A stretch of 64,000 nucleotides of DNA from Escherichia coli O157:H7 (GCF_013167455.1 NZ_CP038328.1), one strand, 5' to 3'. Positions 1 through 3,000 are shown, counted from the stretch's first letter. A program made the numbers.

Positions 1-3000
1 TACCAGTTAGTGCTGGCGAGCCTCGGTGGGCTGGTTTCCTGTGCGGCAAAGGTTCATTTCAAAGAGTAGGTACACGCTATGAAATCATTAACCCTCTTCA
101 ATCAACCAATCCGTATCGGTGAAGATGGCATGATCTGCCTCACTGATATGTGGAAAGCCAGTGGTAAAAGTGAATCTGAATCTCCGTACCACTACCTGCG
201 AAACAAGCAGACCAAAGAGTTCTTGGCTGAGCTGGAGAAAAACCACGAATCTGTGGTTTTTACGGAACGCGGTGCGCACGGTGGAACTTATGGCGGAAAG
301 TTCGTTGCTTATGATTACGCAGCATGGCTAAACCCCGGATTTAAATATGCAGCCTATAAAGTCCTCGATGATTACTTCACCGGAGAGCTTCATCATCGGA
401 ACAGCTTAAGTGCGCAGCTCAACATGAAATGTCATGAGTTTGATCAGAAAAAAGACATGGCGAGCTTCTGTGGACAAGGCCTCGCGGCATGGCGCTACAC
501 GAAACCTGGTTTGATCGCTGAAATTAACTCCCTGGCTAACCAGTTGCAGATTTCGATCCCCGGGCTTCCGGGATGAGTGATCGTGTCATTGAATGCGCCT
601 CCAGAGCGGGGCGCGACTTCTCAGAGTTCATGAAAGGCGAGAAGGGTATGATGGAAGCATTGGCCTCGGTGGATGAGTTTGGCGAGCAGCTGCGCCTCAA
701 CGGCTGTGTCAATCATCACTTTGTTAGCTACATGATGCGGAACTCGATCATGCAGGCATTCATGGACATGGCAAAAGCCGAGAGGAAAGAAGAGCGCCGG
801 CGTAAGCGAGCGGAAGCAAAAGCGAAGTAGCCATTACAAAGCCCATCTACTGGTGGGCTTGATAATGGCTTATACCCTACACGGGATAACTTAACTGATA
901 TCCCTTTTAACGGATAAAGGTATTCAAGCCTGACACATCATGCGCTGTATCGTCGCTGTATTTCCGCATTAACCATGACCGTAGCCCGACGGGGAATTCC
1001 TTCTGCGCGAGTGTGCGGGGATAATCAAAAACGATACACACCGGGGTTTACCGCGTAAACGGAGCGCGGCGTTCTCCCCTCATGGTCGCCCGTCCGGTGC
1101 GATGGTGGAAGAAACTGGAATCTGTTCAATAAAAAAACTGCCGTGTTGGAGTCACAGCAGTAATGTACTGATTGGGTAGAAGATTATTATTGTTATGCTT
1201 TATTTTTATTCTATATGGCTGATTATTTCAATTCGGAATTAATACAGCTAATGTCTGTGAGTTTTTATAAATTCAGCAATATAAAGAAATAGTTATATGA
1301 ACAGCCATCGCAGAGCATACTGTGTATCATTCTTTTTTATAGTCAACTGACGGGCATATTTTATGTCTGCTGCCAGCTCCCGGCGGCAAGATTCAATGAC
1401 CCACGCAGAAAAATTTTCTGAACCTTTCTGGTCAAGAGCGATGTTAATTTGTTCAATCATCTGGTTTGGAAATCGGATGTTGCGGGTTGTTGTTCTGCGG
1501 GGCCGGTTTTTCGATGACATTTTCTTTCCTCTGGTGACAAGCTATATGGCGAGGATTTTACATGGCTGTGCTTCGTACGTTACCGGGCAGAATCAAAACT
1601 CTGAACACCCGGCGGGTGAATATTCTGAAGGGTGAACAGCGTCGTGTCAGTGGCAGTGCACGTGTTTCCCTCAAGCGTCATATCTGGCTCAGGGATGCCG
1701 GGCAGTGCTGTCTCTGTGGTCGTGTGGTTGACCTCTGTGACAGTGAACTCGATCACCGAATTGCACTTCAGTTCGGTGGTGGTAATGAGGAGACGAATCT
1801 CTGGACGCTCTGTACCGAATGCCATCGACAAAAGTCTGCTCGTGAAGCGGCGGGTGGTATGCCGGACCCGACGCTGCCGGAGGTGTCCGGAGGTCATGGC
1901 AGGGCAGACGATATCATCGGACTGTGACCCGCCCCGGGGGGGGGGGATCATCCGGCGAAAAAAACGATCGCTCCGGACACCGCCCCCCGTCTCACGCAGA
2001 GAAAAAATTCCCGTTTCAGGGCAGTTAACATGTTAACTGGCTGCCCGGGCATTTTTGCGGTTTTTATCTTTATTATTCAGTTTGTTGTGCGGAAAAAATG
2101 TTAACAGGCTTTTTCAGCAAATGTTAACCAGGCAGCAGTTAACATTTGCGGCATGAGATGCCGGGAAAAATGGGCTGAACCATACCCGGCTGAGTGCGTT
2201 CTGGACCCGGGAGGAGGCTGTGCTGACAACGCAAAAACGAAAATTTGCGCTGGCGCTCATGTCCGGGAAAAACAAAACAGCGTCAGCCATTGCCGCCGGT
2301 TATTCGGCGAAGACCGCCAGGGTTAAAGGCTCGCAGCTGGCAAAAGATCCGGAGGTGCTTGCGTTTATAGCCCGTAAACAATGCGAGACGGTGGAGGTGG
2401 ATGAGGTTCCTGTTTACCGGCAGAAAAAATCAGAGCAGGAGGATAAACCCCGTCGCCGTGAGGCGGCTGCAATACCACAGCCGGACGAAAACAATCTGGA
2501 GATGCCACCGTCCGCGGTGATGTCTCCTGGTATTGAATATATGGAGGATGGTCTTCCCGATCCGGTGAAAGCCATGGGGCGGATCCTGGTGGAGAACATT
2601 AATACCGACCCCAGGCTGGCGCTGGATGCGGCTTATAAGCTGGCGCAGTTCACGCACCACAAAAAAGGGGATGCCGGTAAAAAATCGGCAAAAGGTGACG
2701 CGGCGAAAAAAGCGGCTAACCGTTTTGCGGTGCCACCACCACCCCGCCTGGTGGTGAATAATGATAATGAGGGCAACGGATGATACCTGTGTGGAGCACG
2801 GCCTGCCCGGACTGGGCAGAGCGCCTGAAAAAGGGGCTGTCGATTATTCCGGCTCCGATTTATCCGGAGCAGGCCGCACATGCCCTGGCGATTTTTAAAC
2901 AACTGCGGATTGTGGATGCACCGGGCAGCCCGACGTTCGGGGAGTCCTGCGCACAGTGGGTGTTTGACCTGGTGGCGGCCCTGTTTGGCTCCTACGATGC

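Follow-up and report, generated by a model that had tools for sequence, protein, structure and literature searches.

A probable cos site with a position-fixed G/C block in the HNH-dependent packaging module of an Stx-type prophage of Escherichia coli O157:H7

A 64,000-nucleotide stretch of DNA from Escherichia coli O157:H7 (GCF_013167455.1, NZ_CP038328.1; hereafter the window) contains an interval, positions 1928–2219, that probably constitutes the cohesive-end (cos) site of an HNH-dependent packaging module of the HK97 supergroup, carried by a Pankowvirus-like prophage of the Shiga toxin (Stx) phage type. It lies between the gene for an HNH endonuclease and the genes for the small and large terminase subunits (terS and terL, encoding TerS and TerL). 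The concatemer is shown, or very nearly shown, to be cut at the decamer CGCCCCCCGT (1981–1990), leaving 10-nt 3´ overhangs and a new left end that starts with CTCA at 1991; taken jointly, the identity of the cos and the position of the cut are very likely. The kind of site is already known and its location has been published for the sister phage Lys8385Vzw; as a discovery it is ordinary. Added here are the exact cut, a modular map of the site, a G run that is fixed in position and common to HK97 and distant Gram-positive phages, a predicted bottom-strand nick that coincides with an HNH-nickase site, and a satellite-like island with a swapped TerS array.

The interval 1500–2800 is 97–99.8% identical to 94 phage records of long-tailed Stx1a-, Stx2a- and Stx2c-converting phages, which include phages 2851, BP-4795, YYZ-2008 and 1717 (genus Pankowvirus). 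Two complete O157:H7 genomes are 100% identical over 1900–2230. Of 5426 complete E. coli genomes, 1243 carry the 331-bp cos interval, which is found 2948 times in all and up to eight times in a single genome. The relatives compared below are 159 loci, representing 108 unique sequences, that fall into a window-type, an SP-016-type (after Salmonella phage FSL SP-016) and a Burkholderia group.

The cut and the module around it

Lys8385Vzw, an induced Stx1 phage, was typed by PhageTerm as 3´ cos with the cohesive end CGCCCCCCCT (Zhang et al., 2021; PMC7946995). Its record (MT225100) ends in ...GGACACCGCCCCCCCT and starts with CTCACGCAGAGAAAAAATTCCCG..., and both ends align base for base with the window, the right end along ...1975–1990 and the left end from 1991 onwards. 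Because the ends align there, the cohesive end of the window is CGCCCCCCGT and the top-strand nick falls at 1990/1991; with a 10-nt 3´ overhang, the bottom-strand nick would fall at 1980/1981. An earlier note on this DNA had expected a cos within the HNH–terS interval, and the PhageTerm result and the record ends bear this out; the C-rich decamer lies inside the interval marked there but had not been singled out as the cut.

A physical DNA end at the same base is also found in an SP-016-type phage. The IMG/VR contig L126 (IMGVR_UViG_3300015186_000014; 42,956 bp) begins with an Illumina adapter tail, CACTCTTTCCCTACACGACGCTCTTCCGATCT, fused to CTCATTCGTAG..., and the junction of adapter and CTCA marks that end. 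The 32 nt of adapter left at the contig start (L126:1–45) are also a contamination artefact in a public database. Among the relatives the decamer occurs as CGCCCCCCCT and CGCGCCCCCT. Two points weigh against the assignment of the cut. The window decamer, with G at 1989, differs by one base from that of Lys8385Vzw; this variant is found in 9 of 55 haplotypes and in the isolated phage phi330. The PhageTerm result is, moreover, a single sentence on a sister phage. The G run described below was considered as the cut site itself and rejected, since the ends map downstream of it, at a distance of 35 bp.

Between the G run and the overhang lies a spacer (1947–1980; ATCATCC..GAAAAAAAC GATCGC..GGACAC) that keeps its length while its sequence drifts. 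It includes GGACACCGC, which is common to the right end of Pseudomonas phage D3, and it ends in an AC|CG step, the site of the predicted bottom-strand nick. Two HNH nickases encoded next to cos have measured specificities, N.phiGamma with CG|GT (AC^CG on the other strand) and N.phi105 with YG|GTY (Xu and Gupta; PMC3592412). The boundary in the window reads GGACAC|CGCC, or ...GGCG|GTGTCC on the bottom strand, and would thus be nicked within CG|GT, the specificity of N.phiGamma. An AC|CG step bounds the overhang in the window, in SP-016, in the Burkholderia phages, in Bacillus phage gamma and in HK97, where the boundary is TGAC|CGCCGCCAAA if the overhang is the last 10 nt of the record. The gamma record (NC_007458; L255:395–454 and L256:1–40) carries the 9 nt CGCCGCCCC at both ends, preceded by GTAC, and because the same 9 nt stand at both ends after GTAC, the inner cohesive-end boundary (GTAC|CGCCGCCCC) is an exact N.phiGamma site; the specificity was measured without being linked to this boundary (PMC3592412). 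A published proposal divides the two cuts between the HNH protein and TerL, one strand each (PMC11331095). In such a scheme TerL and the HNH protein would each make one nick, and the HNH protein may well make the one on the bottom strand at 1980/1981, although we would stop short of calling this probable. The assignment is made because the CG|GT step there matches the specificity of the cos-linked HNH nickases. Against it, the HNH protein of the window is only 29% identical to N.phiGamma (compared with 70% to the HNH protein of SP-016 and 34% to that of D3), and a common nick specificity is an assumption, which makes the assignment a lead.

The flanking genes are those of an HK97-like module. 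The HNH endonuclease gene (1562–1927, plus strand; stop codon TGA at 1925–1927), encoding the accessory nuclease of the packaging module, matches Pfam PF01844 (E 1.1e-6) and phrog_589 (E 1.2e-44). On the other side of the cos, terS (2220–2783, plus strand) has a GTG start and encodes a Terminase_2-type N-terminal helix-turn-helix (HTH) domain (Pfam PF03592, residues 2–57, E 2.5e-8; phrog_641). It is followed by terL (2780–4441, plus strand), which encodes the ATPase and nuclease (Pfam PF03354 and PF20441). The flanking genes also include HK97-family head genes, namely a portal gene (TIGR01537, portal_HK97) and a capsid gene (TIGR01554, major_cap_HK97) in a protease-capsid fusion. TerL is 84% identical to that of SP-016, 23% to HK97 gp2 (E 6e-11) and 21% to that of D3, and TerS is 49% identical to that of SP-016. 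The GTG at 2220 is taken as the true start of terS because the homologues, from Salmonella to Burkholderia, all begin M-(A)-L-T; it is homologous codon for codon to ATG TTA ACA in SP-016. In MT225100 the “terminase” coding sequence (L001:185–793) is annotated from a CTG codon 45 nt upstream of this GTG (window 2175–2220).

In a search of PDB sequences, TerS gave only weak matches (E 0.19–0.8), to SF6-type TerS DNA-binding domains (4zc3, 2cmp and 3zqp). BLASTP found no similarity between TerS and HK97 gp1, and their PHROG families differ (641 here, 5601 in HK97). From these comparisons, the TerS-facing half of the cos would work like that of HK97 but is not homologous to it. The analogy with HK97 drawn in the earlier note thus holds as far as the cut, the HNH protein and TerL are concerned and fails for TerS, which is unrelated to gp1.

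The GTTAAC array and the small terminase

The DNA downstream of the cut (positions +1 onwards, counted from 1991) opens with a left-end box, CTCACGCAGAGAAAAAATTCCCG (1991–2013), that has an A6 tract at +12..+17. The box, given across the relatives as CTCAYNCRSAGAAAAAAT, is near-invariant in the 108 unique sequences; it is recognisable in the Burkholderia phages and in Bacillus phage gamma (CTCAACTTCGCAGAAAAATCCG). Its A-tract portion (+9..+22) lies between the cut and the first GTTAAC site and is conserved more deeply than the GTTAAC sites, gamma included.

Beyond the box, the clustered TGTTAAC motifs that the earlier note had counted as five copies are indeed present as five GTTAAC hexamers (2024, 2032, 2100, 2123 and 2138), each of them part of ATGTTAAC on one or other strand. 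Five copies of ATGTTAAC within 130 bp are beyond chance; the maximum at any locus in 1000 dinucleotide-preserving shuffles of the window was two. Counted as TGTTAAC, the motif has 11 hits on both strands of the whole window, 6 of which fall within 121 bp (2024–2144), at 2024(-), 2031(+), 2099(+), 2100(-), 2122(+) and 2138(-), as against four at most in 1000 such shuffles.

The copies are arranged as four sites. Site A (2022–2039, +32..+49) is the perfect palindrome CAGTTAACATGTTAACTG, or CAGTTAACA|TGTTAACTG, with GTTAAC hexamers at +34 and +42; it had been noted as a palindrome of 16 bp, and it is real but measures 18 bp. It is unchanged in 54 of 55 window-type haplotypes. All SP-016-type, Serratia, Klebsiella and Pantoea relatives have a counterpart, G(T/A)AAACATGTTAAC, equally far from the cut and overlapping the start codon of terS. 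A T-tract spacer follows (2040–2095), with runs of T5, T5, T3 and T3 at 2052, 2061, 2069 and 2081. As the tracts are roughly helically phased, this DNA is probably intrinsically bent, which suggests that site A might be brought near the remaining sites, a role played in lambda cosB by integration host factor (IHF). In a lineage with terS DNA only 83% identical, the spacer is unchanged at 58/59 positions. Site B, AAATGTTAACA (2096–2106; site at +108), is preceded by an A6 tract and has a 16-nt direct repeat (D2) in common with site A; the change A>T at 2106, seen in 33 of 55 haplotypes, leaves TGTTAAC intact. Sites C and D, the last two GTTAAC copies, form a perfect 12-bp inverted repeat (I1), GCAAATGTTAAC-N9-GTTAACATTTGC (2117–2149, +127..+159). 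The leader after them (2150–2219), with the terS Shine-Dalgarno sequence GGGAGGAGG at 2209–2217, is less constrained.

An ATG-started open reading frame of 24 codons on the plus strand (2030–2104), encoding MLTGCPGIFAVFIFIIQFVVRKKC, runs across the T-tract spacer between sites A and B. It was rejected as a likely gene and is probably a by-product of the T tracts, which account for its hydrophobicity. It runs from the ATG at 2030 to the TAA at 2104 with a poor Shine-Dalgarno sequence, and in relatives it is broken by a nonsense change (2034 T>A) and by indels (2046, 2047 and 2052), besides having replacement changes.

The best reading of the array is that its copies are candidate recognition sites for TerS, and we consider this fairly likely. 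A GTTAAC-type site occurs at +33..+48 in every lineage with a phrog_641 TerS, that is, window-type, SP-016-type, Serratia, Klebsiella, Pantoea and Burkholderia (GTTAATGGCTTTAACA). The array is not found in HK97, D3 or gamma, which have the cos core in common with the window but TerS of other families (the compared cos phages have TerS of phrog_641, 5601, 83 and 1437). SP-016 is the compact version, with all core elements kept in only about 105 nt between the HNH gene and terS. Its layout is CCCC-G8, ATCATCC, GATCGC, GGACAC CGCCCCCCCT | CTCA..GCAGAAAAAATCCCC and then GTAAACATGTTAACA, in which ATG is the terS start codon and TTA-ACA are codons 2 and 3. In Burkholderia phage genes of 61% GC, TTA makes up 2 of 67 Leu codons, yet TTA-ACA is kept at the site. 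In the window lineage about 170 bp separate site A from the start codon; the codons now read CTG-ACA, and the detached site is a perfect palindrome. An E. coli lineage with a TerS 79% identical to that of the window (L361) is identical at 106/107 positions over 1991–2097, compared with 44/53 in the segment from the G run to GGACAC, 58/71 over 2150–2219 and 481/577 in the terS DNA. Among the 55 window-type haplotypes the motif cores are invariant, bar one singleton change.

A second array of the same layout accompanies a different TerS. Two E. coli contigs (L363:405–706 and L367:1366–2491; GCA_034224985.1 and GCA_034197145.1) carry an island with an AlpA gene, a cos site and a lone terS (P0053, 157 aa). 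It has no HNH or TerL gene and lies beside a Y1 transposase and a group II intron maturase, followed by chromosomal autotransporter and ccm genes. Its cos core is that of the window (a G8 run, AAAAAAACGATC and GGACACCGCGCCCCCT|CTCATGCAGAGAAAAAA), and the cut lies 228 nt from terS, compared with 229 nt in the window. The repeats are GTTACA(C) at +33, +83, +123, +132, +179 and +192, in place of GTTAAC. Sites C and D of the window are replaced in the island by another inverted repeat, AAAAGTTACA-cga-TGTAACTTTT, and site B alone is common to both. The C-terminal half of P0053 is close to the TerS of the window and the N-terminal HTH has diverged, e.g. by S38W in a stretch that aligns with the SF6 TerS DNA-binding domain. 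The motif thus appears to follow the phrog_641 TerS and to change with its HTH, which gives comparative support to the view of the earlier note that the cluster is a TerS-binding region.

The island looks like a phage-inducible chromosomal island (PICI)-like satellite, or the remnant of one, that may redirect HK97-type Stx-phage packaging. The pattern is that of a satellite because the core needed by the TerL and HNH protein of a helper is kept and an own DNA-binding domain with its own sites is brought along. A comparable case is EcCICFT073, which has the same cosN as its helper and a different cosB (PMC6092414). The island resembles this and other PICI satellites (PMC6092414; PMC6739421) in keeping a helper-type cos core with a different repeat array. 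It differs in that EcCICFT073 exploits lambda-type cos phages, uses Rpp and has no TerS of its own, whereas the island has a chimeric TerS and an HK97-type core.

Several points weigh against TerS recognition by the array. Among the window-type relatives (the 80 closest in IMG/VR) the whole spacer is too uniform to single out motifs, and the gamma clade, which has an unrelated TerS, carries GGAGGTGTAATCATG ahead of terS. For SP-016-type phages, a conserved GTAAAC-ATG is therefore an ambiguous sign of TerS binding, because its GTAAAC half, like the left half of site A, may descend from an old Shine-Dalgarno spacer. HK97 TerS has its mapped site in the A-tract region at +15..+29, where binding varies with the deformability of the A tract (PMC11331095). 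If the present cos is analogous, TerS could make its essential contact with the A-tract box, and the GTTAAC array may only be an accessory that adds specificity or stability for the HTH domains.

A further possibility is that sites B, C and D are non-functional relics of a duplication of the ancestral terS start (SD-GTAAAC-ATG-TTA-ACA, encoding Met-Leu-Thr) that came with an insertion of about 170 bp, and that only the cos core matters. In favour of such an origin, all five copies read ATGTTAAC, the start codon and Leu-Thr of the ancestral gene, and sites A and B contain the repeat D2; SP-016-type phages also work with a spacer of about 105 nt and one site, and the gamma clade has a similar arrangement of Shine-Dalgarno sequence, spacer and ATG without this TerS family. 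We nevertheless regard it as unlikely. Tandem duplication does not produce a perfect 12-bp inverted repeat and an 18-bp palindrome, the array is 99% conserved compared with about 83% in its flanks, the motif cores are constant across the haplotypes apart from the singleton mentioned above, and the satellite-like island has a parallel array at matching offsets with both a different motif and a different TerS HTH.

More improbable still is that the repeats act at the level of RNA or expression, with the C/D hairpin and longer pairing within the late mRNA setting the translation of terS or with the palindromes as operators for another protein. The predicted fold of 2085–2250 (-54.5 kcal/mol, z = -2.5) does form the C/D stem and pairs the Shine-Dalgarno sequence with 2108–2116, but equally good folds arise in 2 of 200 shuffles. 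Because the start codon of terS falls within the site in SP-016-type phages, TerS binding could also autoregulate. A scan of the whole window against Rfam found no family match in the cos region, and scans of 1100–2900 for sigma-70 promoters and intrinsic terminators found none on the plus strand there; a single minus-strand “promoter” was discarded as the motif matching itself. Furthermore, the motif follows the DNA-binding domain of TerS and not a neighbouring regulator, SP-016 keeps site A without the DUF3950 gene, and packaging calls for just such palindromic DNA sites set at constant distances from the cut. The DUF3950 gene (YlcI-YnfO family; 1293–1520, minus strand) lies upstream of the HNH gene on the opposite strand, and its product has an N-terminus that, read by eye, is reminiscent of a ribbon-helix-helix DNA-binding domain. 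As the gene is missing at the SP-016 locus, it is not tied to the cos elements.

If TerS does recognise the array, the downstream half of the cos would hold the left end for the next round of packaging, with the A-tract box first and then the ATGTTAAC array on bent T-tract DNA. The array would be the recognition region for the HTH domains of a Terminase_2-type TerS ring, similar to lambda cosB or SPP1 pacL/pacR.

The G/C block upstream of the cut

The upstream half of the cos is delimited by a G/C block (1928–1946) that consists of CCCGCCCC (1928–1935) and, as the earlier note had seen, a run of eleven G after the HNH stop (1936–1946). The top-strand nick follows 44 nt after the 3´ edge of the block. 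No other homopolymer in the window is as long as G11, the next being G7 and C7. The same G11 is present in the two complete O157:H7 genomes mentioned above, for which reason it is not obviously an assembly artefact. Run length varies from 7 to 11 among near-identical relatives and from 5 to 12 among wider ones.

The position of the run is more constant than its length. A run of G5–G12 is present in 108/108 unique relatives, and the distance from its 3´ end to the top-strand nick is 43, 44 or 45 nt, however completely the sequence in between has changed. Some SP-016-type phages have an AT-rich insert of about 90 bp 3´ of the HNH gene, and in these the run stays beside the cos and not beside the HNH gene. 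HK97 has G9 followed by ATCAAATC..., 42 nt before its right end. In all but one of 65 unique HK97-type sequences a G6–G11 run stops 42 or 44 nt short of the end; the exception has GGGGCGGGG. In a positional histogram, a G or C run of at least 5 is centred at -60..-41 in 54/54 window-type, 65/65 SP-016-type and 73/74 HK97-type loci, and apart from the overhang there is almost no other such run within ±300 nt.

Equivalent blocks are found in other HNH-linked phages with 3´ cos sites: GGGGTGGGGCGGG at 40 nt from the end in D3, GGGGCGGG at 40 nt in gamma, CCCCCCGGGG, GGGGGG or CCCCCCTCCC about 40 nt before the CTCA box in relatives of gamma, CCCCCCACCC at 38 nt in phi105, C5–C8 at about 38 nt in sk1 and other skunaviruses, and GGGGGCGGGGCGG at 32 nt in phiC31. 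Several of these genomes are AT-rich. Because the top strand shows G, C or CnGn, the block would be a signal in the shape of the duplex rather than a strand-specific sequence. HK97, D3 and gamma have related TerL proteins and an HNH gene that adjoins the cos, and phiC31 also has an HNH gene there. Since four TerS families are represented, yet TerL is related and the HNH gene adjacent in HK97, D3 and gamma, the block would go with the TerL, HNH and portal side of the machinery. It is unmentioned in the HK97 structural papers, the skunavirus HNH paper and the HNH-nickase paper; older papers may describe it.

From this distribution, the G/C block is probably a functional element of the cos; against this stands that its role is read from position alone. 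It is very improbable that G11 is a neutral, slippage-prone homopolymer, or an assembly error, that lies between the HNH stop and the cos by chance. The variation in length, the absence of any coding sequence that depends on the run, and the insertion of an IS110-family element into it in PPompW prophages would fit such a view. However, the run recurs in phages of three TerS families, in all 108 unique relatives and in 64/65 HK97-type sequences. Its 3´ edge shifts by no more than ±1 nt despite a diverging spacer sequence, it stays beside the cos where there is the 90-bp insert, and it is retained in the HNH-less satellite-like island. Equivalent blocks also occur in AT-rich Bacillus and Lactococcus phages, and G11 is identical in two complete genomes. 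The earlier note had called the tract a slippage hotspot, which fits the range of lengths but falls short of a deeply conserved element that is fixed in position.

One possibility, which we hold tentatively, is that the G/C block has a mechanism like that of lambda cosQ, which lies upstream of cosN and is required for termination (PMC6092414). In the HK97 termination complex, the ends of the cut DNA lie where TerL meets the portal, and the TerL lumen is filled by some 25 bp of the downstream piece (PMC10359639). Given that location of the cut end, DNA 34–55 bp upstream would sit in the portal channel at the time of cutting. Portal mutations reportedly suppress cosQ defects, to judge by the title of a 2002 study by Wieczorek et al. 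The upstream half of the cos (G/C block, 44-nt spacer and overhang) would accordingly be read by the conserved TerL, HNH and portal machinery, with G11 as an outer landmark. The block might be a structural signal for termination: the incoming motor would reach it some four helical turns ahead of the cut and be slowed or re-set. As only the 3´ edge is fixed, lengthening on the 5´ side would be harmless, so that slippage in run length is tolerated and the range of 5–12 explained. Slippage would then be a by-product of the tract, not its purpose.

More generally, and with the same reserve, an oligo(G)-oligo(C) block about 32–45 bp upstream of the cut may be an unremarked component of HNH-dependent 3´-cos sites at large, read by duplex shape and acting in a cosQ-like manner, within a cos that is modular. 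The phages to which this would extend are those of E. coli (HK97 and Stx phages), Pseudomonas (D3), Bacillus (gamma and phi105), Lactococcus (sk1) and Streptomyces (phiC31).

Two other features of this segment were set aside. Pairing of the G run with the C-rich overhang as a hairpin (inverted repeat I9) is not general, as HK97 has the G run without a C-rich overhang. A direct repeat, TCATCCGGCGAAAAAA / TCACGCAGAGAAAAAA, survives in part in SP-016 but does not occur in HK97. Its copies (1948–1963 and 1992–2007) are 44 bp apart, one after the G run and the other after the C-rich overhang, so that the sequence around the G run resembles a decayed duplicate of that around the cut.

In some relatives the segment is interrupted or preceded by other DNA. 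In PPompW prophages (L249:1046–2504; PPompW_132418, LC567822), the IS110-family element ISEc20 lies inside the G run (about window 1942), flanked on the left by ..CTTTCGGGGGGG and on the right by GGGGGATCATCC.., which is the G run of the window followed by the cos. These prophages lack the HNH and lysis genes and have Q and the tRNA genes linked to cos-terS. Such an arrangement suggests a preference of ISEc20 for G tracts as targets and loss of the interval by recombination between two of its copies. The AT-rich segment of about 90 bp between the HNH stop and the G run occurs in HK97 (L168:620–682) and in many SP-016-type phages (among these loci are L125, L128, L133, L135 and L365–L366), and is absent from the window. 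It carries repeated palindromic motifs of the types TGAAATCATTTCA and ATGATA..ATTCTCAT and may be a binding site or a mobile mini-module.

Known packaging systems, neighbouring features and implications

The cos of Lys8385Vzw (MT225100) is the same element as that of the window. It is about 97–98% identical, has the same order of HNH gene, cos, terS and terL, and has 10-nt 3´ ends at the same position; it differs in the decamer (CGCCCCCCCT compared with CGCCCCCCGT) and in a run of G7 compared with G11. The published report gives only the decamer, with no word on G run, A-tract box or GTTAAC array (PMC7946995).

The cos of HK97 (gp74 HNH, gp1 TerS and gp2 TerL) is similar in its 10-nt 3´ overhangs, the HNH gene just upstream, a homologous TerL, the AC|CG step, the G9 run at 42 nt, and TerS bound just downstream of the cut on A-tract DNA. 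It differs in having one mapped 15-bp TerS site at +15..+29, no GTTAAC array, an unrelated TerS, and a terS that starts 49 nt after the cut instead of 229. The HNH protein gp74 is reported to stimulate cleavage at cos. The sites of gamma and D3, which read AC|CGCCGCCCC|CTCAACTTCGCAGAAAAATCC and, at the right end, ..GGACACCGCGCCCCCA, respectively, are like that of the window in the G-rich block 40 nt before the end, the AC|CG step, a C-rich overhang, an HNH gene immediately upstream and a PF03354-type TerL. Unlike it, they go with TerS of phrog_83, lack the GTTAAC array and belong to phages of very different hosts. Both overhangs appear to be about 9 nt.

The lambda cos follows the same three-part logic of an upstream termination element, a nick site and a TerS-binding array on bent DNA before terS. 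In lambda, the inverted repeats of cosB on bent DNA span about 50–170 bp before terS, and the bend is induced by IHF. Lambda also has 12-nt 5´ overhangs, no HNH gene and the unrelated gpNu1/gpA, whereas in the present case the sister phage has a 3´ overhang, TerS is of the Terminase_2 type and TerL belongs to PF03354. Four matches to the IHF consensus WATCAANNNNTTR were found in the window, none of them near 1900–2300.

SPP1 and SF6, which package from pac sites with the TerS G1P, have a TerS N-terminal HTH of the same family as that of the window. Work from the Alonso laboratory on SPP1 describes several short TerS boxes on intrinsically bent A/T-tract DNA flanking the cut. These phages take a headful route that leaves imprecise, terminally redundant ends, as opposed to the precise cohesive ends here. 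The possibility that the prophage itself packages by the headful route and that the repeats are its pac site, which might be suggested by the Terminase_2 domain of TerS, common to many such phages, and by its sole structural relatives being of SF6 type and from pac phages, is negligible in view of the 3´-cos typing of the sister phage, the TerL of the HK97 lineage with an adjacent HNH gene, the precise ends, one of them marked by an adapter junction, and the homology that links the decamer with its flanking sequence to the ends of D3 and gamma, both of them cos phages.

Some features elsewhere in the window deserve mention. Inside the portal gene (6654–9155), 3.7 tandem copies of a 162-bp unit (54 aa) with 97% identity (8181–8773) encode a C-terminal extension that is unusually long for a portal protein. 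Three identical IS3-family frameshift pseudoknots (Rfam ALIL; 42991–43107 on the plus strand, 54582–54698 and 63426–63542 on the minus strand) mark three copies of one insertion sequence (IS). Downstream of the prophage they are interleaved with three identical tRNA-Asn genes (52021–52096 and 55742–55817 on the minus strand, 57566–57641 on the plus strand), and this part of the window looks like a chromosomal asn-tRNA region heavily populated by IS copies.

If the general reading of the G/C block is true, the upstream half of the cos would co-evolve with TerL and the HNH protein and the downstream half would be swapped together with the DNA-binding domain of TerS, and satellites would exploit this modularity by keeping the core and changing the array. 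For those who study packaging, the block at a fixed distance, present also in the structural model system HK97, and the natural swap of TerS-array specificity offer a testable anatomy. In conclusion, the cos described here serves as packaging origin for a prophage head module that ranks among the commonest in E. coli and includes many Stx1- and Stx2-converting phages. As its core is common to co-resident prophages and satellite-like islands, one element that supplies a working TerL, HNH protein and TerS could package others, and such cross-packaging bears on the mobilisation of stx genes and of defective prophages.

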